This document shows, in pieces, positions 1,205 through 56,009 of a stretch of 64,000 nucleotides of DNA (within the stretch, counting starts at the first letter, position 1; each line of letters begins with the position of its first letter). The notes beneath the pieces are model-generated. The model ran no database searches. It was not told where the DNA came from and saw nothing but the letters and a program-made list of their open reading frames with translations. The DNA is from Candidatus Yanofskybacteria bacterium RIFCSPHIGHO2_01_FULL_44_24 (GTDB lineage Bacteria; Patescibacteriota; Minisyncoccia; 2-02-FULL-40-12; GWA2-44-9): positions 4,834-68,833 of the forward strand of contig MGJK01000012.1 of NCBI GenBank assembly GCA_001794215.1. Reading direction: 5' to 3'. A program made the translations under genes and the position numbers.

Positions 1205-2359
1205 ATGGCCGAAAAATCAATCACGATCTTCACTACCGCCTACAAGCCTTTTATAGGCGGATCCGAAATAGCAATTGAACAAATCAGCCGACGATTGCCG
1301 GATATTTTTTTCAATATCATAACTCCAAAACTTCGCGGTGATCTTAAGTGGGAGGAGGCCACAGGAAACGTGAAAATAAACAGGGTCGGGATTGGATGGC
1401 GACCGTTAGATAAGATGCTTTTTCCCGTTTTGGGGTTTCTACGGGCCGGCGGTTCGCCGTCTGTAGTTCATTCTTATCAGGCGTCATATGGAGGCGGAGC
1501 CGGGTGGGTTTTTAAAGTTTTCCATCCCAAATCTTTTTTTATTTTAACCCTGCAGGAGGGCAAGGATTTTGAAAAGCAGGGGTTTTTTATAAATTTTTTC
1601 AGAAATTTAATTATTAAAAAGGCCGACGCTATAACGGCGATCAGCAATTACTTGGCCGATTACGCCCGCAAGATAAATCCAAAGGCCAAGATCGCGGTCA
1701 TTCCCAATGGAGTGGACCTTGAAAAATTTAAAATTCAAAATGAAAAATTTAAAATTGAAGAACTCAAAAATAGACTAAAAATAGAAGACGGTGATAAGAT
1801 TGTCATTACCATTTCGAGGCTGGTGGAGAAAAATGGAGTGGGAGATCTGATAGAAGCGATCAGTAAGTGCAAAATCGCTAACCCAGAGCAAAGAATTAAG
1901 TTGATGATCATCGGGTCAGGATCGCTTGAGGAAAATTTAAAGATCAAAGTTCAAAAATCAAAATTACAAGACAGCGTTCTTTTCCTGGGGGATATTCCTT
2001 ACGATGAAATTCCTGCCTACTTAGCTATATCAGATGTTTTTGTGAGGCCCTCGTTTTCTGAGGGCTTAGGGAATGCATTTCTTGAGGCGATGGCGATGGG
2101 TGTTCCGATAATCGGTACGCCGGTCGGCGGTATACCCGATTTCCTTCAGGACGGAATTACAGGTCTTGCCTGTAAGGTCAGAAATCCGGACGATATAGCT
2201 AAGAAAATAAGCAGAATCTTGGCGGATGAAGGCCTGAGAAGATTGCTTGGAGAAAACGGAAGAAAACTTGTTCATGAAAGATACGATTGGGACTTCATTG
2301 CTCAAAAGTTTGGAGCAACATACAACCCTTTAATTCAAAATGAAAATATCAAAATGTAA
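1205..2359 (+). CDS. GT4 glycosyltransferase
   Basis: IGGSE N-terminus, ISRLVEKNG, EGLGNAFLEAMAMG (EX7E), TPVGGIPD. Confidence 0.92.
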   Translation: MAEKSITIFTTAYKPFIGGSEIAIEQISRRLPDIFFNIITPKLRGDLKWEEATGNVKINRVGIGWRPLDKMLFPVLGFLRAGGSPSVVHSYQASYGGGAGWVFKVFHPKSFFILTLQEGKDFEKQGFFINFFRNLIIKKADAITAISNYLADYARKINPKAKIAVIPNGVDLEKFKIQNEKFKIEELKNRLKIEDGDKIVITISRLVEKNGVGDLIEAISKCKIANPEQRIKLMIIGSGSLEENLKIKVQKSKLQDSVLFLGDIPYDEIPAYLAISDVFVRPSFSEGLGNAFLEAMAMGVPIIGTPVGGIPDFLQDGITGLACKVRNPDDIAKKISRILADEGLRRLLGENGRKLVHERYDWDFIAQKFGATYNPLIQNENIKM

Positions 2360-2438
2360 AATTCAGGTTACTCAACACTTCATTAGAAAAGTTTTGAGTT
2401 TCAATAATTTTTAACTTTGATTTTTAAATTTTAAATTT
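2332..2438 (+). repeat. Type A heptamer-repeat palindromic element (gene-less)
   Basis: A-rich arm AAAATGAAAATATCAAAATGTAAAATT, inner stem ACTCAACACTT(2370-2380)/AAGTTTTGAGT(2389-2399), T-rich arm AATTTTTAACTTTGATTTTTAAATTTTAAATTT ending at ATG 2439. Confidence 0.75.
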
Positions 2439-3593
2439 ATGCGAAGCATTTTAATTACAACCGGAATTTTCCCTCCCGATATTGGCGGGCCGGCTTCTTA
2501 CGGAAAAATATTAGCCGAGAAATTATCCAAGGATTTCAGGGTTACGCTGATTACTTATTCTTCAAAATTAAATTGGGCCGAAGATAAGAAGCTATCTTTC
2601 AAGGTGGTCAGGGTTTGGAGGAAAATTCCCAAATTTTTGAGGCACTTAGTTTACTTTTTCCAAGTTGTTTCATTGGCGAAGAAGCAAGACGTGATATTTG
2701 CCCTTAATTCTGTAAGCGCCGGAGTGCCGGGATTATTGGCGGCCAAGATGCGCAAGAAGAAATTTTTTGTAAAAGTCGTCGGGGATTATGCCTGGGAGAT
2801 CGCGGTTAATAAGAGAAAAACTTCTCTTTTAATGAACGATTTCCAAAAATCCAAAAGAAAAGGCTGGATCGGGGTGCTTCATAAAATTCAATCTTGGCTT
2901 ACCAAAAACGCCGACGGAGTAATAGTTCCTTCTGAGTATCTGGGCAGGGTCGTCAGGGGATGGGGAGTGTCTCAGAATAAGATTCACGTGGTTTATAATC
3001 AGGTAGAGTTTAAAAAATCAGAATTAACCAAGGAAGAGGCCCGAAAGAAGATAGATATATCGGGCAATATCATCGTATCAATCGGCCGGCTGGTGCCTTG
3101 GAAGGGGTTCAGGATGCTGATCAAAATAATGCCTGAACTTCTGAAAATAAATCAGTTTTTCCGCTTGGTTATTATCGGAGACGGTCCTGAAAAATCGAAT
3201 CTTGATTCGATGGTCAAGAATATGAGACTCGAGAAGAAGGTTTATATTGTTGGGCGCAAGTCTCAGTCGGAGGTGGCCGATTATTTAGCGGCCAGCGATA
3301 TATTCGTTTTGAACACCGGTTACGAGGGCTTTTCGCATTTGATACTTGAGGTGATGACGGCCGGCGTACCTGTGGTTACTACGACCGTCGGAGGCAACAA
3401 AGAAATTATCCATCAGGGGGAGAACGGATTTATGGTTAAGTACAATGATGAATTTAATCTGATCGAAGCTATCAAAACAGTTTGGCAGGTTCCGGAAATG
3501 CGCCAGCGTTTTATAGACGGCGGACTTAAAGCTTCCGGGTTGTTCAGTGTAGATTCCATGTTCCAGGAGACAGTCAAAGTCCTAAAAAGCTAA
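2439..3593 (+). CDS. GT4 glycosyltransferase
   Basis: FPPDIGGPA, IGRLVPWKG, EGFSHLILEVM (EX7E). Confidence 0.92.
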   Translation: MRSILITTGIFPPDIGGPASYGKILAEKLSKDFRVTLITYSSKLNWAEDKKLSFKVVRVWRKIPKFLRHLVYFFQVVSLAKKQDVIFALNSVSAGVPGLLAAKMRKKKFFVKVVGDYAWEIAVNKRKTSLLMNDFQKSKRKGWIGVLHKIQSWLTKNADGVIVPSEYLGRVVRGWGVSQNKIHVVYNQVEFKKSELTKEEARKKIDISGNIIVSIGRLVPWKGFRMLIKIMPELLKINQFFRLVIIGDGPEKSNLDSMVKNMRLEKKVYIVGRKSQSEVADYLAASDIFVLNTGYEGFSHLILEVMTAGVPVVTTTVGGNKEIIHQGENGFMVKYNDEFNLIEAIKTVWQVPEMRQRFIDGGLKASGLFSVDSMFQETVKVLKS

Positions 3594-3644
3594 AAGACTA
3601 AAGACTATGGCTTTATGCTCTCAGCATTAGTCATTTCACCAGCA

Positions 3645-4826
3645 ATGAAATTATTGATGATATCGGGTGATCGAAGTTTAGCTCAAGGCAAAAAGGGCGC
3701 TTTTTACAATACCTTAGAAGAACTTCGCAGGCATTTTGAAAGAGTTGTCATCATCTGCCCGCCTATCGGAAATTCAAAACTGAAAATTGTAAATTATTTC
3801 GATAATGTCGAGGTCCATCCTTCTCCGTGGCCGTTGGTATTTCAGCCTTTGTGGATTCTTCGCGAAGGCTCGCGGATTATAAGAGTTGAAAATTCAAAAT
3901 TGCCCGCCTTCGGCCAAGCCGGGGCGAGGCCGGAGAAAATTGAAAATTGGTTTATGACCGTTCATGAGTACCCGCCCTTTTATAACGGCATCGGGGCGCG
4001 GCTGTTATGGCAAAAGATAAAGGTTCCTTACCTGCTTGAAGTTTTTCATGTCCCCGGATACCCAAGATCGGCTAATTTAAAAGAGATTCTTTATAAGAAA
4101 TTAACAGGAGCCTTTATCGGTTATGATACCGCTAAGACTTCAGCCGTCAGAGTCATGAATGAAGATATGGGAGATTTTCTTGAGAAGGCCGGAGTACCGA
4201 GAAAAAAGATCAAACTCATTCCGGCTATCTATATCGATTTTGATGTTTTTAGGCCGGTGAATCTCATCAAAGAATACGACCTCATTTTTATTGGCCGGTT
4301 AGAATCTAACAAGGGAGTAGACCTATTGCTCAAAGCAATAGAATTTTCAATTTTTAATTTAAAATTTTCAATTAAATGTTTAATTGTCGGAGAAGGCTTA
4401 TTGAAAGAGGAGTTAAAATTAAAAATTAAAAATTTAAAATTGCAGGACAATGTCCTGCTTCATGGTTTCGCCAAAGATTCCCGTGAAATATCCGAGCTGA
4501 TGAATAAGTCTAAAATCTTGGTAATGCCGTCGTATAACGAGGGCGGACCCCGGGTAGTAGTCGAGGCTTTAGCGTGCGGGGTGCCGGTACTGGCATCAAG
4601 GGTCGGAATAGTGCCGAATTTGCTTAAAAATGGCTTAGGATGCGAGATTATCGACTGGAAGGCCGAAGATATTGCCAAGAAGGCGCAAGCTCTTCTGGGC
4701 GATCCTGTGAGGTATGGCGAATTCAGTAAAAACGGCCCCAAAATAGCGGCTCAATTTGAAAGAAGGGCGGCAATAAGGAATTACGCCGAGGAACTCCACA
4801 AAATAGGTCAAAACCGGACAAACTAA
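3645..4826 (+). CDS. GT4 glycosyltransferase with in-frame heptamer-repeat segments
   Basis: FIGRLESNKG, EGGPRVVVEALACG. Start taken at MKLLMISGD (3645). Confidence 0.88.
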   Translation: MKLLMISGDRSLAQGKKGAFYNTLEELRRHFERVVIICPPIGNSKLKIVNYFDNVEVHPSPWPLVFQPLWILREGSRIIRVENSKLPAFGQAGARPEKIENWFMTVHEYPPFYNGIGARLLWQKIKVPYLLEVFHVPGYPRSANLKEILYKKLTGAFIGYDTAKTSAVRVMNEDMGDFLEKAGVPRKKIKLIPAIYIDFDVFRPVNLIKEYDLIFIGRLESNKGVDLLLKAIEFSIFNLKFSIKCLIVGEGLLKEELKLKIKNLKLQDNVLLHGFAKDSREISELMNKSKILVMPSYNEGGPRVVVEALACGVPVLASRVGIVPNLLKNGLGCEIIDWKAEDIAKKAQALLGDPVRYGEFSKNGPKIAAQFERRAAIRNYAEELHKIGQNRTN

Positions 4827-4960
4827 CCGGTTAAAGTTATGAACAGATAAGCCTTTCCCCCGTATCTCTAAAAGTAATATAATTAATGCAGTGTTTTTAA
4901 CTCTTAGATTCCCCTTTTAGGCACGGATAAAACGTGCTTAGCGGTGCTTCTATGTTTTTT

Positions 4961-6627: not shown

Positions 6628-8445
6628 ATGAGCAGGCTTCTTATTATTACCCAAAAAGTAGACATAAACGATGGCGTTTTAGGTTTTTTCCACGAGTGGA
6701 TCAGGAGGTTCGCCGAAAGATTTGATAAGGTCACGGTTATCTGCCTGAAAAAGGGCGAATACAATCTGCCGCCGAATGTTAAGGTCTTATCGCTGGGCAA
6801 GGAGACGTACGGCCATTATCCGGCAGTCGTCAGGCGGGCTTTGTTTTTTAAGAAATTTTATTCTTACATCCGACGGGAGAGAAATAATTACGACGCCGTA
6901 TTCGTACACATGAATCCTAAGTACGTTGTTCTCGGTGCTCCTTTGTGGAAAATTTGGGATAAAAAAATCAGCCTCTGGTATGCTCACGGCCATGTGGGCC
7001 CGACTCTTCAGTTGGCCGACAAGATGACCGATATTGCTTTTACCTCGACTCCGGAGGGCTATAGATTGAAAAGCGACAAGTTAGTCATAGTCGGACAGGG
7101 GATAGATACGGAAAAATTCAAAAATCAAAATTCAAAAATCAAAATTGATGATAGATTCAGGATTATATCCGTCGGGCGTATCACGGCCTCAAAGGATTAT
7201 GGAACGTTGATTCAGGCTTTATCCGTGCTTGGTAAGGATCTGAGAGATAAGCTGGAAGTTTCCATTGTCGGTGATACATGGACGGATAAAGACACTGCTT
7301 ATCTATCTGGATTGAAAGATAGGATAGCCGAGAAAGGATTAAGCGGAACGATAAAATTTTCTGGTCCGATTGCCAACAAAGATTTGCCGGGATTTCTTCA
7401 GTCAGCTGACCTATTCGTAAATATGGGATTGACCGGGAGTTTGGATAAGGCAATTTTGGAAGCGATGGCTTCGGGATTGCCGGTTTTGACCTGTAACGAG
7501 GCTTTGAAAAACGTTCTTGGTCTATATGCGGATAAGCTTATGTATCCGAAGGAGGATTCCGGCAAATTATCGGAAAAAATATCCTTGATGATGAAAATGG
7601 GTGGCCGCGAAAGAGCATCTTTGGGTGCCGGCCTGAGAGATATTGTCATAAGAGATCATAATATTGACGGTCTGATAGGCAAAATATCTAACTCAATCAA
7701 GGGCGTCCCTGCCAATCTAAATGTCGGTGACATTTACAACCGGCAGATAAAGGGTAAATTTGAAGGGAACTATGAGTATCATCGCTGGAAGAGCTCACCG
7801 GTCAAAAGGGCGGGGTATGAAATGACCCGGAGTTTGATTCGGGGTAATATATTGAAAAGCGGTTTGGGTTTCAGGGATTACCTTGAAGTGGGTCCCGGTC
7901 CGGGGACGTGGACGAAGATGTTTTTGGAGGCGAGTCCGAAAGCAAATTTTGATTTAGTGGATATATCCTCCGAAATGCTCAACTTAGCTAAGCAGAATCT
8001 TGCCGGTCATGGCAATTTAAGGTACATAGAGACCGATTTTCTGCGCTTCAATCCCGATAAGAAGTACGACATATTCTTTTCTTCCCGGGCAATTGAGTAT
8101 ATGCCGGATAAGGATGGTTTAGTAAAGAAAATATCCGATCTTTTGAGGCCGGGAGGCAGGGGATTCGTCATCACTAAAAATCCTAAATATTTACGGAGCA
8201 AATTGGCCGGCAGACATATCTCGGAATTTCATAAGGGCCAGATCTCTCCCGAAACATTCAGGGCCTTATTGATTGGAAATGGTTTCAAGGATGTCGAAAT
8301 TTATCCGGTTACTTTTGTTTTTCCCGTTTTCAACTCCGCCTTCATGAACAGGACGGTATCAGGGATCTTTTCTTACCAGAAATTGAATACGTTAAATAAT
8401 TTTTTTGCAGAATCCTATTTAATTAGGTTCAAGAAACCTAATTAA
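6628..8445 (+). CDS. GT4 glycosyltransferase fused to C-terminal class I SAM methyltransferase
   Basis: SVGRITASKD and GSLDKAILEAMASG (GT4); YLEVGPGPG, LVDISSEML, LLRPGG (methyltransferase). Confidence 0.88.
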   Translation: MSRLLIITQKVDINDGVLGFFHEWIRRFAERFDKVTVICLKKGEYNLPPNVKVLSLGKETYGHYPAVVRRALFFKKFYSYIRRERNNYDAVFVHMNPKYVVLGAPLWKIWDKKISLWYAHGHVGPTLQLADKMTDIAFTSTPEGYRLKSDKLVIVGQGIDTEKFKNQNSKIKIDDRFRIISVGRITASKDYGTLIQALSVLGKDLRDKLEVSIVGDTWTDKDTAYLSGLKDRIAEKGLSGTIKFSGPIANKDLPGFLQSADLFVNMGLTGSLDKAILEAMASGLPVLTCNEALKNVLGLYADKLMYPKEDSGKLSEKISLMMKMGGRERASLGAGLRDIVIRDHNIDGLIGKISNSIKGVPANLNVGDIYNRQIKGKFEGNYEYHRWKSSPVKRAGYEMTRSLIRGNILKSGLGFRDYLEVGPGPGTWTKMFLEASPKANFDLVDISSEMLNLAKQNLAGHGNLRYIETDFLRFNPDKKYDIFFSSRAIEYMPDKDGLVKKISDLLRPGGRGFVITKNPKYLRSKLAGRHISEFHKGQISPETFRALLIGNGFKDVEIYPVTFVFPVFNSAFMNRTVSGIFSYQKLNTLNNFFAESYLIRFKKPN

Positions 8446-8895
8446 ATTTTTACTTTTTAATTTAGAATTTTTACTTGATTCATAATGGCCAATTTTAAAA
8501 ACAACTACGATTTAGAAGAGAGGGTTGCCAGATTTGGCGAGGAAATAATTCTTTTTTGCCGAAGAGTCAAAAAAGATCCGATAGTCTTGCCCCTCTTGGT
8601 TCAGTTAATAAAATCAGCTACCAGTATCGGCGCTAACTACATGGAGGCCAATGGAGCCAGCTCGAGAAAGGATTTTGCCAATAAGATCTACATAGCCAAA
8701 AAGGAAGCCCAGGAAACCAAATACTGGCTGCGTATGCTCTCGGTTTATTATCCAAATGAATTAGAAAAACTTCAGAAATACCGGCAAGAAAGTCACGAGT
8801 TCACTTTGATATTTCACAAAATTGTCCGTACCATTAAAGATAAAGATTCCAAGGAACCGGATGCAATAAAAATTTTAAAGTAAAAATTAAAAATT
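8445..8895 (+). mobile_element. Type B palindromic cassette enclosing a four-helix-bundle gene
   Basis: Left arm 8445-8473 and right arm 8867-8895 are reverse complements at 26 of 29 positions; one of the three differences is a G.T wobble. Confidence 0.6.
8485..8883 (+). CDS. Four helix bundle protein (23S rRNA IVS-protein/Avd-like family)
   Basis: YDLEERV...QLIKSATSIGANYMEA...SRKDF...IAKKEAQETKYWL signature. Confidence 0.92.
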   Translation: MANFKNNYDLEERVARFGEEIILFCRRVKKDPIVLPLLVQLIKSATSIGANYMEANGASSRKDFANKIYIAKKEAQETKYWLRMLSVYYPNELEKLQKYRQESHEFTLIFHKIVRTIKDKDSKEPDAIKILK

Positions 8896-8898
8896 CTT

Positions 8899-9468
8899 AT
8901 GGTAATCGAACTATTCGGTCTGCCGGGGGCGGGCAAAACAACTTTTGCTAAACAGTTAGAAGCTGACGGCTTTACCGTGGTTAAGATAAGGACCAAGAAA
9001 GAGCTTCTTTATTTTAATTTTGTCCATTTAGTCCGTCATCCGATCAGTTCGCTGATGAACGCCATCTTCATTTTAAAAAATTCACCTAATCCCGGACTGC
9101 GCTATTATAAATTCATGAATTTTTTCTTAGATATGAATGCCCGCTACGAAAAAGCTCGATTGTACGGCAAGGCAGTTTTGGATCAGGGATATTTTCAGAA
9201 TGTCTTATCGGTATTTGAGAATCCGATGAGTGCCGAGATTATGAAGAGGTATATAAAGCATCTTCCTAAGCCGGACAAGCTGATCGTTTTAGACATCTTA
9301 GCCGAGGAGAGTTTAAAAAGAGCGGGGGAAAGGGGATATTACTCGCGCGAAAGATTTGGTGATGAATATGTCGAGAATTGGAGAAAAGTAGTTTTGCAGA
9401 ATTATGATTTGTTCAAGAAAGTCGTAGGGGATTTGGGGGTAGAATATGAAATCGTGAGTAATAATTGA
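8899..9468 (+). CDS. P-loop NTPase / nucleotide-kinase-like protein
   Basis: Walker A GLPGAGKTT, AVLDQG, PKPDKLIVLD (thymidylate-kinase-like fold). Confidence 0.75.
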   Translation: MVIELFGLPGAGKTTFAKQLEADGFTVVKIRTKKELLYFNFVHLVRHPISSLMNAIFILKNSPNPGLRYYKFMNFFLDMNARYEKARLYGKAVLDQGYFQNVLSVFENPMSAEIMKRYIKHLPKPDKLIVLDILAEESLKRAGERGYYSRERFGDEYVENWRKVVLQNYDLFKKVVGDLGVEYEIVSNN

Positions 9469-9602
9469 AAATTCAAAAATAAAAATGCAAAATTATCGAA
9501 GCTCATTTAGCAACAAAATGAGCAATCCAAATTTTAAACTTTTTAATCAATTTTCAATGATAATAATTCTAAAATTTAAAATTCTAAATTAAAAATTTTG
9601 TA
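9466..9602 (+). repeat. Heptamer-repeat palindromic element (type A left part, possibly composite with type B)
   Basis: AAAATTCAAAAATAAAAATGCAAAATTATCG, inner stem GCTCATTT(9501-9508)/AAATGAGC(9516-9523), further AATT heptamers up to ATG 9603. Confidence 0.7.
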
Positions 9603-11885
9603 ATGAAGCTTGTCTATATCACCAACGCCAAAATACCTTCAGAAAAGGCTCGTAGTTTGCAGATTATGAAATCATGCGAAGCTTTTGCCACGCAGAACGA
9701 GGCCAATATGCGAATGAATGCCGATGATGCGGATAGGGGTCAAAAAGTTGAAGTCGAGCTTGTTTTACCAAGGCGGGTAAATGCGCCGAAGGATGACCCT
9801 TTTAATTTTTACAGCGTAAAAAGGATTTTCGGGATAAAAAAGATTTTTAATTTCGATCTGTTCGGTCTTTCTTTCGTACCAAGAAAATTTGCATTTTATG
9901 TCCAATCGCTGAGCTTCGGTCTTTTCGGAGCGGTCTACCTGTCGATTTTTTACGGTAATAAAACAGTTTTTTACTCCCGTGATTTCGCCACGCTTTTCTT
10001 TCTGTGTTTGTTCGGGTTCGATCCTATTGCGGAAGTTCACGACTATCGTTCGTCAAAGTTCCGATGGGATGTGAAATATGTTTTAAAAAATTCGAGAAAA
10101 GTTATTGTTAATTCGGAAGGAACGCTCGAGCAACTAAGAAAGCATTATGAACTTGATGCGTCGAGAGTCTTAGTTGCACCCAACGGGGTTGATTTAGAAT
10201 TCTTCAGTATTAAAGAGTCGCAAGATGAGGCGAGGAGAATTTTGAATATTCCGCAAAACAAGAAAGTCGTTGCCTACATAGGCCGTCTCGAAACTGTTGG
10301 TCAGGACAAGGGCGTCGGTACTCTGCTGGAGGCCTTTAATATACTAAATACAAAATACGATATACCAAATACACATCTTCTCATTGTCGGCGGTCCATAC
10401 CATTTAGTTGAAAAATACAAAGCAGAGGTTAGGAATCAGCATAATATTACCTTCACCGGCCAGGTAGAGTATCAGAAGGTTCCTCTGTACCTAAGAGCGG
10501 TTGATGCGGTTGCGATCCCTTTACCGAAAAATCAGCACGCAATTACAACTTCGCCGATTAAACTTTTTGAATATATGGCCGCCGGAAAAGCTATCGTTGC
10601 TTCGGACTTGCTCTCGATAAGACAATATTTGAATTCGGAAAATGCGGTATTCTTTGATGCGGAAAATTCCGAAGATTTAGCCGGAAAACTCAAGGCCGTT
10701 TTAGGTGACGGTATATTACGCAATAAAATCTCTAAAAATGCGTTACAGGATGCCACCCGATACTCTTGGATTTCTCGTGCTCAGAAAATTATTAATTTCG
10801 CTGTCAGTAAAACTTCAGTACATACACTCAAGGCCGTTCTCTATTTCGGCGATTTTGATCCCAATTATGCCCGCAATAGCGTGATCATTAAAGGACTTCA
10901 GAAGAATGGCGTAGAAGTTTTATTGTGCAATGACCGGACGAAGGGATTCAAAAAATACGTGAATTTGGTCAAAAAATTCATAGATTTGGATAAGCGATTC
11001 AACTTAGTTATCGTCGGTTACTCTGATTCCCGCTTCATGGTTCCCCTAATTAATATTTTGACCCGGAAGAAGGTAGTTTGGGATGCCTTCTACTCTATCT
11101 ACGATAACTGGATTTTCGATAGAAAGTTGGCCGCACCTAATAGTATGAAGGCGAGTTATTATTGGACGATGGACTGGTTTTCTTGTTGGCTTTCCGATCT
11201 CGTCTTATTAGATACGCAGGCCAACGCCGATTATTTCATTAGAACTTTTAATATGTCCCGCGATAAAGTAAGGCGCGTTTTTATCGGCGCAGACGACGAA
11301 GCATTATATCCAAAAAAGAAAACAATATCAGACAAGTTCATCGTAGAATTTCATGGTAACTATATTCCCGTTCACGGCTTAGAGTATATTATAAAAGCTG
11401 CTAAAATATTAGAAAAACATCAGGATATTATGTTCTATGTCATTGGTGGAGGACAAGAGCACGGTAAAATAAAGAAATTAGCCGAGGATTTACGAGTTTC
11501 CAATATAACTTTCATGGATAAAATGCCTCAGTACATGATCTCTGAGTATATAAAGGAGGCTGATGTTTGTTTGGGTCTTTTAGGAAATTTGGATCGCGGA
11601 GGCAGGGCAATCCCAAATAAGGTCTACGAGGCTTCGGCGATGGAAAGAGCAAGTCTGAATATGGATGGTCCGGCTATTCACGAGTTATATACCGATCGGG
11701 AAAATATACTTTTGTGTCATGGCGGAGATTCTCAGGATATAGCTGATAAAATCTTAGAATTGAAAAATAATCCTCAGCTGAAGGATCGCATAGCTAAAAA
11801 TGCCTACCAGTTATATTTGGCCAATGGAACCCCGAAGACAATAGGGGATCACTTGATTAAGCTGATCGGCCGATTATTATTTTAG
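9603..11885 (+). CDS. Double-domain GT4 glycosyltransferase
   Basis: Two GT4 modules: SPIKLFEYMAAGK and IPNKVYEASAM. Confidence 0.88.
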   Translation: MKLVYITNAKIPSEKARSLQIMKSCEAFATQNEANMRMNADDADRGQKVEVELVLPRRVNAPKDDPFNFYSVKRIFGIKKIFNFDLFGLSFVPRKFAFYVQSLSFGLFGAVYLSIFYGNKTVFYSRDFATLFFLCLFGFDPIAEVHDYRSSKFRWDVKYVLKNSRKVIVNSEGTLEQLRKHYELDASRVLVAPNGVDLEFFSIKESQDEARRILNIPQNKKVVAYIGRLETVGQDKGVGTLLEAFNILNTKYDIPNTHLLIVGGPYHLVEKYKAEVRNQHNITFTGQVEYQKVPLYLRAVDAVAIPLPKNQHAITTSPIKLFEYMAAGKAIVASDLLSIRQYLNSENAVFFDAENSEDLAGKLKAVLGDGILRNKISKNALQDATRYSWISRAQKIINFAVSKTSVHTLKAVLYFGDFDPNYARNSVIIKGLQKNGVEVLLCNDRTKGFKKYVNLVKKFIDLDKRFNLVIVGYSDSRFMVPLINILTRKKVVWDAFYSIYDNWIFDRKLAAPNSMKASYYWTMDWFSCWLSDLVLLDTQANADYFIRTFNMSRDKVRRVFIGADDEALYPKKKTISDKFIVEFHGNYIPVHGLEYIIKAAKILEKHQDIMFYVIGGGQEHGKIKKLAEDLRVSNITFMDKMPQYMISEYIKEADVCLGLLGNLDRGGRAIPNKVYEASAMERASLNMDGPAIHELYTDRENILLCHGGDSQDIADKILELKNNPQLKDRIAKNAYQLYLANGTPKTIGDHLIKLIGRLLF

Positions 11886-12598
11886 TTGATTTTCTATTAA
11901 TTTTTTTTATACTTTCTATATGTTTGTACGCAAAAATAACTGCCGTATTTGCGGAAGCTCTGATCTTGTGAGCGTACTCAATTTAGGCGATCAGCCACCG
12001 GCGAATGCTTTTCTAAAAAGAGAAGACTTTAAAAGCGAAAAGGCATATCCTCTTAATGTTTACTTTTGTAGCGGATGTAATCTTTTGCAACTAAGAGACA
12101 TAGTTTCCCCGGATATTTTATTTCGGGATTATGTTTATGTTTCTTCAACTTCACGCAGTTTTGTTGAGCATTTTGAATCTTATGCGGCGGATGTAGCTAA
12201 AGACTTTGATGTAAAAAACAAATTAGTTATCGATCTGGGAAGTAATGACGGTGTATTATTGAAGCCCTTTAAATCCTTAGGCGCCAAAGTTCTTGGGATT
12301 GATCCGGCAATCGAAATTGCCCGAAAAGCAACCCAAGAGGGAATTGAGACTTTGCCGGAATTTTTTACACCCGACCTCGCTAAAGACATAGTTGCTAAGA
12401 GGGGTAATGCCAAAATAATAAGCGCGAACAATGTCTTCGCTCACATAGACGACGTTAAGGCTGTCTTAGAGGGAGCTGATATCTTATTATCCGGTGACGG
12501 GGTCTTTGTCGCTGAGTTTCCTTACTTAGTCGACTTTATTAATAAAGGCCTGTTTGATACGGTTTACCACGAACACCTTTCTTATTATGGAGTCAGGC

Positions 12599-19042: not shown

Positions 19043-19175
19043 CAATTACTCTAATTTCTAATTGATCTAATTATTCTAATCAATTCCCAATTTTTTAAAT
19101 GTCTAAATCCTAAGGTTTTCGTTATTACGATTTATTTAGGTCAATTAGGTTAATTAGTATAATTAGGTTAATTTT
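19043..19175 (+). repeat. Type D 9-mer-period palindromic element (gene-less)
   Basis: Left arm CTAATTTCTAATTGATCTAATTATTCTAAT, right arm ATTTAGGTCAATTAGGTTAATTAGTATAATTAGGTTAATT; lies between stop 19035 and ATG 19182. Confidence 0.65.
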
Positions 19176-35906: not shown

Positions 35907-36052
35907 AAATCCGAATAGCGAAACAAGAAATTCGAAACAAACAATAAGCCCGAAGCTTTTAGAGGGTGGCCGGTGGGCGTGCGGGGTATTCAAATGTTTG
36001 GAGTTTCGATCTTCGATATTGTTTCGTATTTCGAAATTCTAATTTCTAATTT
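35907..36052 (+). repeat. Type C heptamer-repeat palindromic element (gene-less)
   Basis: Left AAATCCGAATAGCGAAACAAGAAATTCGAAACAA, right TTCGATATTGTTTCGTATTTCGAAATTCTAATTTCTAATTT; ends 6 nt before ATG 36059. Confidence 0.75.
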
Positions 36053-36058
36053 AAGTAG

Positions 36059-37156: not shown

Positions 37157-37270
37157 TTCTAATGAAAAATTCAAAAATCAAAGTGTAAAATTATTGTAAC
37201 CCGTAAAACCCCTTGATTTTTACGGGTATCCTGAATTTTTAATTTTGATATTTACATTTTAAATTTTGGT
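37157..37270 (+). repeat. Type A heptamer-repeat palindromic element
   Basis: Fills the whole stop-to-ATG gap; inner stem ACCCGTAAAA(37199-37208)/TTTTACGGGT(37218-37227). Confidence 0.85.
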
Positions 37271-38224: not shown

Positions 38225-38338
38225 CCTAATGAAAAATTTAAAAATCAAAATGTAAAATTATTGTAACTCGCGAAATTAACCGACTTTTGCGAGTATCCTT
38301 AATTTTTAACTTTGATCTTTACATTTTAAACTTTTTAG
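38225..38338 (+). repeat. Type A heptamer-repeat palindromic element inside the split GT4
   Basis: Close relative of 37157-37270; inner stem ACTCGCGAAA(38266-38275)/TTTTGCGAGT(38285-38294). Confidence 0.85.
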
Positions 38339-44125: not shown

Positions 44126-44504
44126 GTTTCCAAAAATTGTCAATAAACCGTGGGGCAGGGAGGTCTGGTTAGAGTTAAATAAAAATTATTGCTACAAAAG
44201 GATTTACATCAACAGAGGCTTTAGAACCAGTTTTCAGTTTCACCGGAAGAAGATGGAAACCAACTATATCATCAAGGGTAGGGCTGAAATTTGGCTTGAA
44301 AACGATCGCGGCGTTGTTTTGAAAAAAAATATGAAAAGCGACGATTTTTTTACAGTTAAACCGCCCCGAAAGCACAGAGTGGCTGCAATAACCAATCTGG
44401 TTCTTCAGGAGGTTTCTACCCCTGAAGTCGACGATGTTGTCAGAATCAACGATGATACCAATAGGCCCGATGGTAAAATTAAAAGCGAGCACAAAAATAA
44501 ATGA
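44115..44504 (+). CDS. Cupin (mannose-6-phosphate-isomerase-type)
   Basis: KPWGREVW, TSFQFHRKKMET, HRV, EVSTPEVDDVVR. Confidence 0.8.
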   Translation: MKYKFPKIVNKPWGREVWLELNKNYCYKRIYINRGFRTSFQFHRKKMETNYIIKGRAEIWLENDRGVVLKKNMKSDDFFTVKPPRKHRVAAITNLVLQEVSTPEVDDVVRINDDTNRPDGKIKSEHKNK

Positions 44505-44788
44505 ATCCCGTTAGAGCCAAAATGTACTACCATGTCTATGTATTACAAAGCACAAAGGATAGGCACTGGTATACAGGCTTTACGGTGGATTTACGGAAGC
44601 GCTTGAAAGAACACAATGAAGGAAAGTATGAGTCGTGGACAAAAGGCAGAGGACCATTTGAATTAATATATTATGAAGCGTCTAAAAACAAACAAGATGC
44701 TAAAAATAGAGAAAAATATCTTAAAACTGGCATGGGCAAGCGCTACCTCAAAAACAGGCTTAAGCGCTTCCTGGCTCTAACGGGATGA
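44501..44788 (+). CDS. GIY-YIG nuclease family protein (start may be ATG 44522)
   Basis: YHVYVLQS...WYTGFTVDLRKRLKEHN...IYYEA...AKNREKYLKTGMGKRYL. Confidence 0.9.
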   Translation: MNPVRAKMYYHVYVLQSTKDRHWYTGFTVDLRKRLKEHNEGKYESWTKGRGPFELIYYEASKNKQDAKNREKYLKTGMGKRYLKNRLKRFLALTG

Positions 44789-46497: not shown

Positions 46498-46972
46498 AAA
46501 AACTCGAATAACGAAATTCGAAACTCGAAACAAAACCAGAAAATTAGAAATAAAATCATGAACGAAGCTAAAAAACCTTATGATTTGGAAGAGCGGTCTT
46601 TACTGTTTGCTAAACGAGTTAACGGTTATGTGCGTAAATTGCCGAAGGATACTCCTAATTTTGAAAACGGAAAGCAATTGGTCCGTTCTGGTGGTTCAAT
46701 CGGAGCTAATTATATCGAAGCTAACGAGGCTATGAGTAAGAAAGATTTTAGAATGAGAATCAAGATATCTAAGAAAGAGGCCAAGGAAACTGTCTTCTGG
46801 TTAAAGTTGACTCAACCGACTTCAGAACAAATAAACGAAAAAGACGATTTAGTAAAAGAAGCTGGCGAGTTGATGAATATTTTAGGCGCTATCTTGGTTA
46901 AATCTTAGTTTAGGAATTTATAATTTCGATATTCGACATTGTTTCGGATTTCGATATTAGGATTTCGAATTT
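46498..46972 (+). mobile_element. Type C palindromic cassette enclosing a four-helix-bundle gene
   Basis: Left AAACTCGAATAACGAAATTCGAAACTCGAAACAA, right TTCGACATTGTTTCGGATTTCGATATTAGGATTTCGAATTT; arms match the gene-less copies at 35907 and 54461. Confidence 0.6.
46558..46908 (+). CDS. Four helix bundle protein (23S rRNA IVS-protein/Avd-like family)
   Basis: YDLEERS...QLVRSGGSIGANYIEANE...SKKDF...ISKKEAKETVFWL. Confidence 0.92.
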   Translation: MNEAKKPYDLEERSLLFAKRVNGYVRKLPKDTPNFENGKQLVRSGGSIGANYIEANEAMSKKDFRMRIKISKKEAKETVFWLKLTQPTSEQINEKDDLVKEAGELMNILGAILVKS

Positions 46973-46979
46973 ACATAAA

Positions 46980-47702
46980 TTGTATAAACAGTATAAAGTA
47001 TTGGGTCTTATTCTTGCTCGCGGAGGTTCCAAGTCTATTCCTAAGAAAAATATTAAACTGCTTGGAGGCAAGCCTTTGCTTGCCCATACGGTTGAAAAAG
47101 CCAAAGCCGCCAAGTACATTGACCGGCTCATCCTTTCCACTGACGATAAAGAGATTGCCGATGTCGGCAGAAAATACGGAGCCGAAGTTCCTTTTACGCG
47201 ACCGGCAGAATTAGCCGAAGACAGCACGACCGACTATCCGGTTTTCGTTCATGCGGTTGAGTGGCTTGAAAAGAACGAGAATTGGAAGCCCGATTTTGTC
47301 GTTCACTTACGGCCGACTCATCCTTTTCGTAAAACTTCAGATATCGATAAAGCCGTAGAAATGCTCGCCGGTAATCCGGAAGCCGATTCTGTTTGGACCG
47401 TTGGGCTGCCTCCGGTGACGCCGTACAAGATGTTTTTGGCCGAAGAAGGCCAATTTATTAAACCAGTCGTTACTATCCCCGGAGTAGATGAGGCGTATAA
47501 TCTTCCTCGTCAGAAACTTCCCAAAGCCTACAACCACTATGGCCAAGTTGATGTTATGAGGCACAATACGTTGATGAAAAAGAAATCAATGTGTGGGAAA
47601 AATATCTTACCTCTTTTCCTTGAAGGAGAATTAGTTGATTTAGATACTCTATTCGATTGGGAGTTCGCGGAGTTTCTAATGAAAAAAGGGAAGATCAGAT
47701 AA
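46980..47702 (+). CDS. neuA: Acylneuraminate (nonulosonate) cytidylyltransferase 1
   Basis: LARGGSKSIPKKN, LSTDD, RPAELAED, LRPTHPFR, DLDTLFDW; TTG start. Confidence 0.88.
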   Translation: MYKQYKVLGLILARGGSKSIPKKNIKLLGGKPLLAHTVEKAKAAKYIDRLILSTDDKEIADVGRKYGAEVPFTRPAELAEDSTTDYPVFVHAVEWLEKNENWKPDFVVHLRPTHPFRKTSDIDKAVEMLAGNPEADSVWTVGLPPVTPYKMFLAEEGQFIKPVVTIPGVDEAYNLPRQKLPKAYNHYGQVDVMRHNTLMKKKSMCGKNILPLFLEGELVDLDTLFDWEFAEFLMKKGKIR

Positions 47703-47772
47703 TTTTTTACTTTTTAATTTTCAATTTTATAATCAATTTTTAAAATTAAAAATTCTAAAATTAAAAATTTAA
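47703..47772 (+). repeat. Type B heptamer-repeat palindromic element (gene-less)
   Basis: TTTTTTACTTTTTAATTTTCAATTTT ... AAAATTAAAAATTCTAAAATTAAAAATT between stop 47702 and ATG 47785. Confidence 0.7.
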
Positions 47773-47784
47773 CTTCTTTATAGC

Positions 47785-52345: not shown

Positions 52346-52365
52346 ATATTACAAATTCATTATGC

Positions 52366-52398
52366 GGGCCGTGTCAAGATTGATACGGCTCTTTTTTT
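52366..52398 (+). terminator. Intrinsic terminator
   Basis: GGGCCGTGTCAA..TTGATACGGCTC-TTTTTTT. Confidence 0.7.
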
Positions 52399-52411
52399 AT
52401 TGTATTGATAT

Positions 52412-53221
52412 ATGGTGGCCAACGAATTATTTGAACAAAAGTGGAGCGAGGCTTTGAAGGGAAAAAAGGGAGAGGAATTCTCCATCTTCGTTCCCAAAGG
52501 AAAAAAACCGCAGACCCAGCGTCAGTTTAATTTATATTATTACTACCGCCTTATAGAGCGGCTGATTAAAGGCCGGAATTATAAGAATAGCATCGAATTC
52601 GGATGCGGCAGGGGAACCATCTCTCTTTATCTAAATCTCTACGGAGGTCTCGACGTTACTCTTTTCGATGTGGATCAGGGCGGGGTTGATTTAGCCCGGG
52701 CTAATTTTGACCTTCACAGAGCCAAGGGTTCTTTTTTTGTGGCCGATAGCGCCAAAGTTCCCATTGCTGATGACAGTTTCGATATTGTGGTGACCATGGG
52801 CTTGCTTGAGCACCTCACCAACTATATTGATAGTCTGAAGGAAATGTACAGAGTCCTTAAGCCGGGAGGAATCATGATATCGATGAATGTACCTAAGAAA
52901 ACATCCATTCAGATTTTGAACAAAATTTATAGAAAGATTCTCGGCGCAGTTAATAAGAAAATAGAGCTGAAGCTGGACTATTTCCGCATAGAAGAAACCC
53001 CGGCCGGGTTCCAGCGTACTGCCGAATTTGTGGGGTTCAAAAATTGTTCAATAATTCACGCCGATCCTCTTCCGCTTTTTACTCCCGTTGCAAAGCCCAT
53101 CGAAAGAACCTTGGCCGTTCTTTATAGAAATTTTATGGAGTTTCGCAAGCTATTTAAGTCTGAGCCGATGGAAACGGGAAGGAGATTGTCGAGGTGCCAT
53201 TTTCTTATAGGCTATAAGTAA
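52412..53221 (+). CDS. Class I SAM methyltransferase
   Basis: IEFGCGRG, FDIVV..GLLEH, EMYRVLKPGG. Confidence 0.88.
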   Translation: MVANELFEQKWSEALKGKKGEEFSIFVPKGKKPQTQRQFNLYYYYRLIERLIKGRNYKNSIEFGCGRGTISLYLNLYGGLDVTLFDVDQGGVDLARANFDLHRAKGSFFVADSAKVPIADDSFDIVVTMGLLEHLTNYIDSLKEMYRVLKPGGIMISMNVPKKTSIQILNKIYRKILGAVNKKIELKLDYFRIEETPAGFQRTAEFVGFKNCSIIHADPLPLFTPVAKPIERTLAVLYRNFMEFRKLFKSEPMETGRRLSRCHFLIGYK

Positions 53222-53322
53222 AATTTTTAATTTAGAATTTTTAATTTTCAAAATTGGCCGTTAAAAACCGATTATAAAATTCCTGCCTGCCGGTAGGCAG
53301 GTTAAAGTAAAAAGTAAAAATT
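53222..53322 (+). repeat. Type B palindromic element (gene-less) with nested GC hairpin
   Basis: Arms TTTTTAATTTAGAATTTTTA and TTAAAGTAAAAAGTAAAAATT nearly identical to the 8445-8895 cassette arms; CCTGCCTGCCGGTAGGCAGG at 53282-53301. Confidence 0.8.
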
Positions 53323-53332
53323 GATATCAAGC

Positions 53333-54475
53333 ATGAATGGTTTTAATATTAAAACCCCTTATAGTAGTAGGAGGATAGGCGATAACGCCCCTACTTTTGT
53401 TATAGCCGAAATAGGTAAGAATTTTATCCAGACCAAAAAGGAGAAATCGGTTAAAGAATATCTGAGGAACGCCAAAGAACTGGTAATTTTAGCCAAAAAA
53501 TCCGGAGCTGATGCGGTTAAATTCCAAACCCATAATGTCGAGGATGAACAGCTCAATTTAAAAATAAGAGCCCCGCACTTTAAGGGCGATAGGTACGAAT
53601 GGGTTTCGAGGAATACCAAGGCTACACCGGTTAAAGAGTTTTGGATTCCGCTCAAAGAATTCTGCGATAAGGAAGGAATCACATTTTTCTCTACGCCCTG
53701 CAGTTTAGGAGCCGCAAAGATATTGTCCTCCCTGGATGTGGCTCTGTGGAAAGTCGCCTCTTGGGATATTTTGGATTTTGTTATGCTCGACCATATCAGA
53801 AAAAGCGGCAAACCGGTTATTATTTCCGGCGGAGCCAGTACGGCCGAAGAGATAGACAGATCAATCTCTTATATCCAGGAGAAAAACAAAAATCTTGCCT
53901 TGCTTCATTGTGTTTCCAAGTATCCCTGTCCACCCGAAGAGTTGAATTTGGGTACGATCGGTTTTTTTAAGAAAAGATACGATGTCCCCATAGGTTTTTC
54001 CGATCATTCTTTAGGCATCGAGTCTACCCTGGCCGCCGTTGCCCTGGGAGCTAAGGTGATAGAAAAACATTTCTCCCTGTCCCGAAGCTTATGGGGGGCC
54101 GATCATAGATTTTCCATGACTTCGGCATCGTTTGGTAAAATGGTTACAGAGATAAGGAAAATAGAGGCTAATCCCGGTGCGGCTCAGAAATATTTAAATC
54201 ATGAGAAAGTAAAGCCGAGCCTGAATTTTTCCGGCAAGGTTATCAGAGACGAAGAGAAAAGCATGAAGGCCGTATTTGCCAAGGCTCTTTTTGCCGGACG
54301 GGATATTCCGGCCGGACAAGTTATAAAATCTGATATGTTATACTCAATGAGACCCGGATTGGCGGTCGGAGGACTTCAGCCACTCCACTTCCATATGGTA
54401 GTCGGTCAAAAATCAGCAAAAGATTTGAAGAAGTTCGAACCGATAACGTTAGAAGTTGTAAAATCCGAAATCTGA
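53333..54475 (+). CDS. neuB: N-acetylneuraminate-synthase-family (nonulosonate synthase) 1
   Basis: IAEIGKN, GADAVKFQT, HCVSKYP, GFSDHS, IEKHF, C-terminal SAF domain. Confidence 0.88.
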   Translation: MNGFNIKTPYSSRRIGDNAPTFVIAEIGKNFIQTKKEKSVKEYLRNAKELVILAKKSGADAVKFQTHNVEDEQLNLKIRAPHFKGDRYEWVSRNTKATPVKEFWIPLKEFCDKEGITFFSTPCSLGAAKILSSLDVALWKVASWDILDFVMLDHIRKSGKPVIISGGASTAEEIDRSISYIQEKNKNLALLHCVSKYPCPPEELNLGTIGFFKKRYDVPIGFSDHSLGIESTLAAVALGAKVIEKHFSLSRSLWGADHRFSMTSASFGKMVTEIRKIEANPGAAQKYLNHEKVKPSLNFSGKVIRDEEKSMKAVFAKALFAGRDIPAGQVIKSDMLYSMRPGLAVGGLQPLHFHMVVGQKSAKDLKKFEPITLEVVKSEI

Positions 54476-54601
54476 AATCCGAAATTCTAAACAAAGCCCG
54501 AAAATCAGAAATCCTAAATCTGAGATGGTTTGATAGTTTTCTTTAGTTTCAATATTCGATATTGTTTCGTTTTTCAACATTCGATATTCGAATTTAAATT
54601 T
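54461..54601 (+). repeat. Type C heptamer-repeat palindromic element (gene-less)
   Basis: AAATCCGAAATCTGAAATCCGAAATTCTAAACAA ... TTCGATATTGTTTCG(54555-54569)...TTCGAATTT. Confidence 0.8.
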
Positions 54602-54608
54602 CTTAGGC

Positions 54609-55922
54609 ATGAAGATCCTCATAAGTATCCCAAGTCCCGAATATTACAGGAACTATATTACTTCGCCGGCGCTTTCGGAAATAATCGAAAGCTGTTATTT
54701 TATTGTGCCCAAGAAAATGGCGGATAAGGATTTCGGAGTGCCTAAATCGAGGGTTGCGGTCTATGATTATCCTGCCGACAAAGAAGTTCTGCACAAACAT
54801 TTATTTCATATCAATACAGGAAAGTTTGAATCTCGAAGCACTTCCCTGAAGTTCAGATTTATGAGACTAAGCAAAAGGAGCCAGGTTCTCTATCGTATTC
54901 TTGGATTGCCGGTTATTTATGAACTGACGCGATTTTTCATCCTCTCCCGAGCGGACGATAGACGGTTATTCTCTGTAATTAAAAGCATTCAGCCGGATGT
55001 AATTTTAATGCCTTCAAGCGGGTACGAGGGGATTACTTTTGAAATTATAAAGACAGCCAAGAAGCAGGGGGTACCGACTTTGATGCTGGTAGATAACTGG
55101 GATAATTTAGTGAGCAAGACCATTTTTACCTATAAGCCTGATTTTCTTTCGGTCTGGGGACCGCAGGCGGTTAAAGATGCCGTTGAAATTCATGGAATAC
55201 CCAAAGAAAGGATCTTTCCGATCGGAACGCCGAGGTTTTTCAATTATTTCAAGAACAGATCAGAGTATCCGTCACCTTACCCCTTTAAGTATGCACTTTT
55301 TGCCGGAAATTCAACGGGTTTTGATGAGCTGTCTGCGCTTAAAAAACTCGAAGAATATATCGAGAAAAATAATTTAGATCTCAAGATCGTTTATCGGCCC
55401 CACCCAATGAGGCAGAAAAGGAAATGTCCGGATAATTTTGTTGAGAGCGAATTCAAACATGTTGTACTGGATCTCCAGGCCAAGGAATATTATAACCGGG
55501 AAAAATCCAAAACCCCTTCTGATCTTCCTGATCTGGATTATTATCCCCGGGCCTTGGCTAATATGGAGTTTATGATCTGTCCGTTATCAACCATGTTGAT
55601 TGAGTGTCTTCTTTTTGATAAGCCAGTTTTTGTTTTGGCTTATGATGACGGGATACATTTCGTAAATCCTAAGAACTTGTATAAATATTGCCGACACTTT
55701 GAGGGGATCGAATATCTTAGAAATCTCGAAATCATTCACGAGTTCGAAGATCTAACCAGGGTGTTTACGGTTGATTTTTCCAAGAAAAGAATGGAGAAAG
55801 AAATTCCTTTGAGTTATTATCTTTCAGAAAAAACACGGCACTATCCGCACCATGTGAAATTACTGGTTGAGGATATCAATGCAAAATTCAAAAATAACCT
55901 GCGGGTCGGCCCGCAGGAATGA
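54609..55922 (+). CDS. GT-B protein, CDP-glycerol-phosphotransferase/sialyltransferase-like
   Basis: DNWDNLVSK, VWGP, IGTPRF, YRPHP, STMLIECLLFDKP. Confidence 0.6.
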   Translation: MKILISIPSPEYYRNYITSPALSEIIESCYFIVPKKMADKDFGVPKSRVAVYDYPADKEVLHKHLFHINTGKFESRSTSLKFRFMRLSKRSQVLYRILGLPVIYELTRFFILSRADDRRLFSVIKSIQPDVILMPSSGYEGITFEIIKTAKKQGVPTLMLVDNWDNLVSKTIFTYKPDFLSVWGPQAVKDAVEIHGIPKERIFPIGTPRFFNYFKNRSEYPSPYPFKYALFAGNSTGFDELSALKKLEEYIEKNNLDLKIVYRPHPMRQKRKCPDNFVESEFKHVVLDLQAKEYYNREKSKTPSDLPDLDYYPRALANMEFMICPLSTMLIECLLFDKPVFVLAYDDGIHFVNPKNLYKYCRHFEGIEYLRNLEIIHEFEDLTRVFTVDFSKKRMEKEIPLSYYLSEKTRHYPHHVKLLVEDINAKFKNNLRVGPQE

Positions 55923-56009
55923 AAAATTATCGTAACCCGCAAAACATAGTTAGCTTTGCGAGTGTCATTAATTTTTAACTTTCATCTCTACGCTTTAATT
56001 TTCCGTACT
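55877..56009 (+). repeat. Type A palindromic element with nested GC hairpin, overlapping the 3' end of the upstream CDS
   Basis: AAAATTATCGTAACCCGCAAA...TTTGCGAGTGTCATTAATTTTTAACTTTCAT; CCTGCGGG-TCGG-CCCGCAGG at 55898-55917; ends at ATG 56010. Confidence 0.8.

Follow-up and report, generated by a model that had tools for sequence, protein, structure and literature searches.

The DNA analysed here is a 64,000-nucleotide window from the genome of Candidatus Yanofskybacteria bacterium RIFCSPHIGHO2_01_FULL_44_24 (assembly GCA_001794215.1, contig MGJK01000012.1, positions 4,834 to 68,833 of the forward strand). It holds a long series of glycosyltransferase and nucleotide-sugar genes. Set between and within these genes are what appear to be three forms of a single family of elements: a four-helix-bundle (4HB) gene between inverted arms of five repeat units, gene-less hairpins, and single arms. 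We propose that the family is selfish and mobile, and that a pentameric 4HB protein reads the five units and is needed for spread; as a whole, we give this proposal about an even chance of being right. The observed anatomy, the gain and replacement of elements at given sites, the pairing of gene with repeat, a cap at five cores, in-frame insertion, overwriting and the presence of copies in rRNA support the mobile-family reading.

A first-pass annotation had placed long periodic, imperfect palindromes at 12 junctions of the window. All 12 hold periodic arms where it put them, 11 with period 7 and one (19043) with period 9. The arms are ∼31–34 nt of degenerate 7-mers, apart from one pair built of 9-mers, and pairwise arm scores separate them into types A, B, C, and D. 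The annotation expected the arms to be more self-complementary than shuffled DNA, and this was true of some. Measured against dinucleotide shuffles, whole-element fold z values of the ten gene-less elements ranged from -0.4 to -5.3: five were at or below -3.0, and strength was uneven overall. The arm-to-arm duplexes of the two gene-bearing elements gave z values of -4.1 (8442-8897) and -3.5 (46498-46975). The suggested stop-to-start placement held at the downstream end, where the outer 3' arm ended 0–10 nt before the next start in 12/12 elements. It was looser upstream: the 5' arm started within -7 to +7 of the stop in only 8/12, began inside the upstream gene in three (2331, 54459, and 55877) and began 168 nt past the stop in one (35907). 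The loop genes at 8485 and 46558, read as 4HB genes at first pass, match TIGR02436 at 72.3 and 69.6 bits (cut-off, 24), and each gene-bearing element encloses its S23p/IVP-type open reading frame (ORF) in a terminal stem. In the 46558 protein, Q40, S47, N51, E54, and E77 are invariant positions; TIGR02436 also has a match in Bacteroides thetaiotaomicron. An Rfam scan of the window gave no match; each of the 12 elements falls between protein genes or within one, and none in an rRNA gene. The annotation lacked seven arrays that stand singly within the window's glycosyltransferase genes.

The elements are not confined to the window. The source genome (971 kb in 20 contigs; a 99%-complete assembly) was searched with a strict period-7/8/9 array detector, two order-4 Markov sequences serving as controls. 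It contains 124 period-7, 25 period-9, and 8 period-8 arrays, with 0–1 of each in the controls (1 and 0 for period 7). Paired arms occupy 56 co-directional junctions, the stem beginning a median of 2 nt past the stop and ending 6 nt short of the start; genes were called with a custom program (934 genes), which misplaced some starts by a few codons. Sixty-two arrays are in frame, spread over 42 genes. Going by their sequences, we take the array-carrying genes to include PolA, SecA, UvrC, MnmA, TsaD, LepA, and tRNA synthetases. Near-identical 110-nt copies, with loop and tail in common, occur at non-homologous junctions. Location was scored on a whole-genome count of 192 arrays (the strict period-7 set being 124): 18/192 lie in the window, which is 6.6% of the genome, and 18/192 in a 17-kb ribosomal-protein cluster. 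Ribosomal-protein junctions thus carry arrays more densely than the glycan locus, and elements were also seen at rpl/rps, atp, frr, grpE, ftsE, nusB, and sodA junctions. On these grounds we reject a specificity for glycan genes, and the enrichment in glycan loci that had been predicted is not supported.

The source genome's own 23S rRNA carries four gene-less hairpins of the window types at loop tips, near Rfam model positions 283, 583, 690, and 1218. Positions 583 and 1218 should correspond to helices 25 and 45, which are well-known hosts of intervening sequences. Helix tips of rRNA also house the loci L031 and L036 (L codes denote loci; G000 is the source genome and other G codes are relatives). 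Among 30 relatives, two 4HB cassettes are located in 16S and 23S rRNA. The kinship with rRNA intervening sequences that the annotation had invoked is therefore borne out by hairpin types in the genome's own 23S and by gene-bearing copies in the 16S and 23S of relatives.

How tightly is the 4HB gene bound to its repeats? Seven TIGR02436 genes are present in the source genome, one interrupted by an in-frame TAG; each of the six intact genes has its own arm type, and 4HB genes are the only genes that these arms enclose there. Almost all 4HB genes of the 30 relatives are flanked by a 5' array and a complementary 3' one. For one subfamily, the best 80 of 593 GTDB loci, which by record title span more than 10 phyla, were examined; 79 carried an array on one side or both, versus 10/153 control windows. 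Pooling gave 206 matches, reduced to 179 distinct genes after removal of partial and duplicate proteins; a flanking array was found at 169/179, on both sides in 125, versus 29/339 control windows, so the expected co-occurrence of elements and 4HB genes is strong. Of 106 genes with 7-mers on both sides, 70 had 5' and 3' units that are reverse complements of each other (shuffled mean 3.3, maximum 10). A RAT core flanked 35/41 clade I genes and an AG core 105/128 clade II genes. Close proteins from different genomes matched in unit in 40/268 pairs, versus 2/89 for distant proteins from the same genome. As judged from these sequences, the repeat unit tracks the protein clade and not the host.

Gene-less elements follow the same rule. 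The best cassette match of those in the window is L016/L035 of relatives for type A, 8485 or L042 for type B, 46558 for type C, and L018 for type D. The sharing of arms between type B and C copies and the 8485 and 46558 cassettes, noticed at first pass, is confirmed. Over the whole genome, 51/56 gene-less elements match the arms of some cassette (15 that of an own gene, 36 that of a foreign gene, and 5 none). The annotation's picture of gene-bearing (autonomous) and gene-less (non-autonomous) copies, with arm type tied to a particular 4HB cassette, fits these results. Its suggestion that each hairpin is tuned by a cognate protein is weakened, since neither type A nor type D has a cognate gene in this assembly.

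Array load also rises with gene number. In 79 Patescibacteria out of 100 genomes of the phylum (G120–G140 left out), counted with the single pattern AAWT x5 and with AG-core arrays outside the correlation, array load correlated with 4HB gene number at rho 0.54, related genomes being treated as independent. The median AAWT five-core count was 0, 2, and 59 in genomes with 0, 1–2, and 3 or more 4HB genes. The correlation with reverse transcriptase (RT) was -0.12, an RT being present in 8/30 array-rich and 19/49 array-poor genomes.

Comparison of orthologous sites points to movement. In the ribosomal-protein operon of 28 relatives, a given junction is either 1–15 nt long when empty or filled, with unit types that differ by genome; array junctions numbered 0–1 in 8/9 genomes without a 4HB match and five in the other, G022. 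Three congeners differ at nusG-rplK, which is empty in G030, holds a 4HB cassette from the stop codon in G021 and a GxxExxY-like cassette in G024. The window junction at 2331–2438 is empty in relatives and holds a type D gene cassette in G001. Filled and empty states, as sought by the first-pass annotation, are therefore both found. In contigs from 4/14 DNA runs, none of three elements checked turned up in a clean empty form, which is no proof of absence; only arms of other organisms were seen, with sharp ends at 38227-38228 and 37265-37267. Terminal inverted repeats, the lack of coding capacity, dispersed copies, and filled and empty alleles are all found here, as in MITEs (miniature transposable elements with inverted repeats).

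Inside genes, the outcome of entry varies. Orthologues of MnmA, TsaD, and the window GT4 gene at 1205-2359 carry 53 arrays, of which 35 lengthen the protein, 15 leave its length within 2 aa, and 3 shorten it; in several of the coding insertions the gain is 7 aa (three units). The segment at 1932 is always 22 residues in array-free orthologues, and four genomes carry arrays there, of two unit types, with zero change in length. Such length-neutral replacement is not expected from target-duplicating transposition or from single-step slippage; it suggests that a short strand may anneal at flanking seeds.

The siting of the arms would also suit a domesticated translational control, in which pentamers bind cognate mRNA arrays and open or block the stem by the start, thereby tuning operon coupling. 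TRAP, which acts on trp leader repeats, is the analogy. The 3' arms end a median of 6 nt before starts, and single arrays stand directly before the ATG in relatives and ahead of every 4HB start. A regulatory role was proposed by MacGregor for TAACTGA repeats (PMC4679880). Shine-Dalgarno (SD) motifs, reported as missing by the annotation, were indeed nearly absent, found at 1/38 element-preceded ATG starts; but they are scarce anyway, at 117/598 other co-directional ATG starts. We nevertheless consider this explanation unlikely. The type at a junction varies randomly among congeners and is often missing, the commonest type (A) has no cognate gene here, and arrays persist without the gene. Moreover, the sense strand shows no bias: G-U exceeded A-C pairs in junction stems by only 109 vs 93 (p=0.29) and in relatives by 40 vs 39, and coding arrays occur in both orientations (13:17, with 32 ambiguous; 0.44 expected from the stop-codon filter). 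An RNA-strand-specific hairpin under selection, as first envisaged, is thus not supported, and the missing strand bias fits entry at the DNA level.

The arms have a characteristic length. About 4.5 units make up 73/124 strict arrays, and runs of 4, 5, 6, and 7 AAWY cores at period 7 number 123, 54, 3, and 1 (Markov: 1, 0, 0, 0). Arrays of 30–34 nt account for 43/70 intergenic and 34/54 coding cases, and those of at least 38 nt for only 3 and 2. The length peak is equal in intergenic and coding DNA; therefore, the reading frame does not explain the five-unit ceiling. Neither, in all probability, does polymerase slippage at AT-rich seeds, with the 4HB gene hitch-hiking on a horizontal cassette and its protein never touching the repeats. 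Slippage is the published guess for the heptamer excess (PMC4692102), and it would account for the 7-aa, three-unit coding insertions and for the freely lengthening arms of some phyla. But the ceiling is sharp even in intergenic DNA, which is free of frame constraint; only periods 7–9 occur, and the units are limited to those likewise found beside 4HB genes; and neither length-neutral overwriting nor near-identical 110-nt copies at non-homologous junctions are accounted for. Free copy number with a decaying tail, the mark of slippage, was absent here and seen in part outside Patescibacteria. We rate this explanation as quite improbable.

A protein with five binding sites would offer another source of the ceiling. 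Each of the two solved homologues, 2RLD and 2GSC, is built of five chains, and by homology the window proteins are likely to form homopentameric rings. In the Avd pentamer, all five protomers touch an RNA stem-loop whose flipped bases sit in inter-subunit crevices (10.1101/2023.10.23.563531). By analogy, a 4HB ring likely reads five repeat cores, one per subunit.

We consider it very unlikely that the hairpins are mRNA intervening sequences whose purpose is the processing of operon transcripts through RNase III cleavage or excision. An RNase III gene is present; the four 23S copies have 9 G-U versus 3 A-C pairs, too few to test; and in the Coxiella 23S precedent RNase III cuts at the first heptamer repeat (PMC4990558). 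However, many junction stems are weak and interrupted, strand bias is lacking, and single arms cannot make a stem. The element at 38227 is the clearest case. It lies inside a WcaL-like GT4 gene, split just past the first Glu of the EX7E motif, and 120/120 homologues listed end at that site, with a GD[MQN]E-type motif. Among 80 loci fetched, inspection by eye identified 19 split loci; a C-terminal ORF of ∼92 aa lies within ∼15 nt in 15 and no such ORF is directly downstream in the other four. None of the 19 has an array hairpin. Because 15/19 are coupled without one, the gene was split long ago and the hairpin arrived afterwards; splicing is unnecessary. The downstream half at 38227 keeps its own ATG, as in hairpin-free homologues, which led us to reject an intron or a ribosome hop and speaks against the excision with re-ligation raised at first pass. 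A scan of viral contigs for the split GT4 found nothing. The gene pair probably encodes a conserved two-chain or half glycosyltransferase, and RNase III cutting of junction hairpins is plausible as a side effect.

Retro-mobility, in which the pentamer would load array RNA onto an RT acting in trans, Avd-like, and cDNA would replace or extend the target DNA, is the least probable explanation of all: homology to Avd (PMC10053308), a retrohoming-like overwriting without length change and a diversity-generating retroelement (DGR) in the source genome whose RT start is closely preceded by an array favor it, but array load is uncorrelated with RT, the array-rich single-contig genomes G092, G043, and G085 have no RT candidate, and there is no strand bias. 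The two RTs of the source genome lie on contigs C5 and C19, apart from the seven 4HB genes, and so lack the adjacency seen in DGRs.

Several observations weigh against a selfish family spread by its pentamer. Gene and arms travel together, and co-inheritance may cause part of their pairing; likewise, kin are not independent in the correlation of array load with gene number. Type A, the commonest, and type D have no cognate gene even in a 99%-complete assembly. Six of 33 genomes without a TIGR02436 match hold 15–158 array hits, and a broader profile run on five of them found no 4HB gene in four and, in the fifth, one weak match beside its RT. Conversely, 3/25 genomes with 3 or more 4HB genes give 0–1 hits, one pattern being counted. 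In phyla other than Patescibacteria, arms of more than five units are numerous (mode still 4.5, tail to 17). The siting at junctions is partly survivorship in packed operons. A TA at both ends fits nusG-rplK and the comparison of 38227 with L159, but it is indistinguishable from TTA pairing with the stop codon, so a target-site duplication cannot be separated from that pairing; length-neutral coding copies show no such duplication. Finally, no catalytic mover was identified: a search of the genome for IS630-type DDE_3 gave no match, other transposase families being outside the survey, and otherwise the genome has one Y1 transposase (PF01797, away from the loop genes) and the two RTs.

Four gene-free genomes, G104, G082, G112, and G063, have 37–158 array hits and no 4HB match even by the broad profile. 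Their arrays may be relics, may reflect assembly gaps, or may belong to another cognate protein.

If the family is indeed selfish and mobile, a coherent route can be drawn. A five-subunit ring would read one core per subunit on single-stranded nucleic acid, which would fix the length at five units, and would promote copying of the arms to new sites. New copies would enter at short look-alike seeds, either the TA of a stop codon or one repeat-like unit within a gene, through annealing or replacement performed by enzymes of the host. The host might tolerate them for several reasons. The paired stem would leave the stop and the next start ∼2 + 6 nt from its base, near native spacing; ribosomes terminating there would unwind the AU-rich stem; within rRNA, a loop tip would be extended by the stem, which RNase III would clip as with intervening sequences; and an arm before the 4HB start could let the protein damp its own synthesis. 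More tentatively, and with clearly less confidence, we suggest that this is transposase-free mobile DNA in which the pentamer wraps a ∼32-nt five-unit single strand and stamps it at seeds, inserting or overwriting. If so, such stamping would be the source of most long bacterial heptamer repeats, short rRNA intervening sequences, and junction hairpins, and of low-complexity loops in Patescibacteria proteins, and it would come with a readable protein-to-repeat code. A ring that writes repeats into DNA would be a new mutational force on the operon junctions and housekeeping proteins of Patescibacteria. Array-coded loops in MnmA, TsaD, PolA, and GT4 enzymes would then be annotated as element footprints, not adaptations, and natural orthogonal ring-repeat pairs would be at hand for binding RNA or single-stranded DNA.

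Table 1. Elements and single arrays of the window (positions of the 64,000-nt window)
Feature	Position	Strand	Remark
Single in-frame array, GT4 gene	1722..1758	+	variable loop
Single in-frame array, GT4 helix	1932..1965	+	length same as in orthologues
Gene-less type A hairpin	2331..2438	+	5' arm codes final residues of upstream glycosyltransferase
Short single array of further type	3585..3607	+	spans stop codon
Single in-frame array, GT4 gene	3764..3797	+	
Single in-frame array, GT4 gene	4337..4374	+	
Single in-frame array, GT4 helix	4410..4441	+	position equal to that of 1932
Single in-frame array, GT4 gene	7108..7146	+	
Type B cassette, 5' arm, period 7	8442..8476	+	overlaps upstream stop
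Type B cassette, 4HB gene (TIGR02436), 132 aa	8485..8883	+	72.3 bits
Type B cassette, 3' arm	8864..8897	+	overlaps 4HB gene end, 1 nt from next ATG; duplex z -4.1
Composite gene-less element	9462..9602	+	type A 5' arm and type B 3' arm around a shared middle arm
Single in-frame array of further type, GT4 gene	10341..10373	+	
Gene-less type D hairpin, period 9	19043..19174	+	best match 4HB cassette L018 of congener G001
Gene-less type C hairpin	35907..36056	+	ends 2 nt before start, 168 nt past upstream stop
Gene-less type A hairpin	37160..37267	+	fold z -5.0
Gene-less type A hairpin	38227..38336	+	in coupled junction of anciently split GT4 (37271-38224, 38339-38617)
Type C cassette, 5' arm	46498..46534	+	begins at upstream stop
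Type C cassette, 4HB gene (TIGR02436), 116 aa	46558..46908	+	four predicted helices, pLDDT 94
Type C cassette, 3' arm region	46917..46975	+	duplex z -3.5
Gene-less type B hairpin	47700..47775	+	
Gene-less type B hairpin	53219..53322	+	20-nt palindrome nested in 3' arm
Gene-less type C element	54459..54600	+	upstream stop supplied by 5' arm
Gene-less type A element	55877..56002	+	20-nt palindrome nested in 5' arm

The nested 20-nt palindromes in Table 1 are GC-rich (53278-53302 and 55896-55918), and similar ones occur in other arms and in the 23S helix-45 insert. At the ribosomal-protein junctions of contig C11 (L078), six type A copies share a GCGAAGC-like tail, 1–4 nt before the ATG. The 23S rRNA gene on the same contig (G000:C11:1-3400) has a further long insertion with an ORF, resembling a LAGLIDADG homing endonuclease intron. 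The 4HB gene with the in-frame TAG is L003 (G000:C3:8588-8908); a second 4HB gene with a single TAG or TAA was found in several other genomes. Another 4HB gene, L048 (G000:C8:47300-47842), has a C-terminal extension, 8-mer arms, and arrays inside its own coding sequence, with a second copy of the leader and first codons shortly downstream. The DGR of the source genome (L093, G000:C5:32286-34717) comprises a target gene with a variable repeat, a template repeat at 33702-33840, and an antisense Avd-like frame, its RT start being preceded by a four-unit heptamer array.

Other genes are packaged in a similar way. At window position 44501-44788, a small gene, which we take to encode a GIY-YIG nuclease, lies inside a CCCGTTAGA / TCTAACGGG inverted pair that ends at the next ATG. 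Gene-less elements with CCCGTTAGA / TCTAACGGG ends fill ribosomal-protein junctions in G001, G004, G005, G009, G010, and G012. These elements are a second cassette-plus-MITE family of like lifestyle. The occupant of the nusG-rplK junction in G024 (L413, G024:C33) is a gene in inverted repeat arms that we call GxxExxY-like by recognition; the GxxExxY family has no match in the source genome. Elsewhere in the window, an IS481/IS3-like transposase gene (12637-13875) separates methyltransferase-like parts at 11920-12621 and 13945-14532.

Individual pieces of this system have been described before. In Coxiella, heptamer repeats precede the S23p ORF of the 23S intervening sequence and RNase III cuts the first of them (PMC4990558). 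ORFs for IVP sit in 16S and 23S insertions of Candidate Phyla Radiation bacteria, in a report whose accessible text does not mention repeats (10.1101/2024.02.27.582315). Like the intervening sequences of Coxiella and Leptospira (S23p / PF05635 / TIGR02436), our cassettes carry a gene of the same protein family in a terminal stem. They differ in siting: the majority of copies are found not in rRNA but at mRNA junctions and in genes. In the accessible parts of the intervening-sequence papers, the repeats are incidental or unmentioned, and a gene-less family, single arms, a gene-unit code, and a five-unit cap do not appear.

Heptamer repeats have a literature of their own, to which the short tandemly repeated repetitive (STRR) sequences of cyanobacteria belong. 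Rehm et al. described 186 GGGAATC sets in Xanthomonas, most commonly of about four units, with 70 inverted pairs and locations within 50 nt of a stop or start, and also covered Nostoc heptamers (PMC4692102). Among the repeats in that paper's supplement is one of four units at XCC0516 (the pentamer 2GSC), whose start it overlaps. In Beggiatoaceae, TAACTGA repeats lie before start codons, in ribosomal-protein operons, and in ORFs (PMC4679880). The main texts of both papers make no mention of the 4HB family; where they interpret the repeats, it is as G-quadruplexes, slippage products, or S1/Csp/Csr sites. We found no description of a link between the 4HB gene family and arrays in the open-access literature, bioRxiv supplements being outside the scope of the search. 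Such a link connects an orphan protein family with two solved pentamers, a heptamer excess left unexplained in the papers discussed here, and the question of how short rRNA intervening sequences arose.

Two further systems share one side of the biology each. Avd of DGRs is a homologous pentameric barrel that, in the published structural account, contacts RNA through all five protomers, whereas the elements described here have no linked RT, no template or variable repeat, and no RT correlation. The TA-targeting MITEs Correia, ERIC, and RUP are gene-less hairpins co-transcribed beside stop codons. They differ from the present elements, which comprise dozens of unrelated arms per genome and come without an IS630-type transposase match.

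The closest organization is that of REPIN-RAYT. There, several gene copies per genome each have their own inverted-repeat type, with many gene-less doublets and singlets per type, and the genes have moved laterally (Bertels and Rainey 2011, PMC3116915). Type-specific inverted doublets, both at the gene and dispersed without it, are found here as well. However, the cognate gene is an HUH/Y1 transposase in REPIN-RAYT and TIGR02436 here, and in place of short palindromes we find tandem-array arms, whole cassettes that relocate, and in-frame entry into genes with overwriting. Because the transposase that defines REPINs and MITEs was not found, we suggest on the sequence comparisons that these elements form a new category, with the mechanism set out above as a proposal. 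The category resembles REPIN-RAYT in how it works and takes in those rRNA intervening sequences that bear an ORF.

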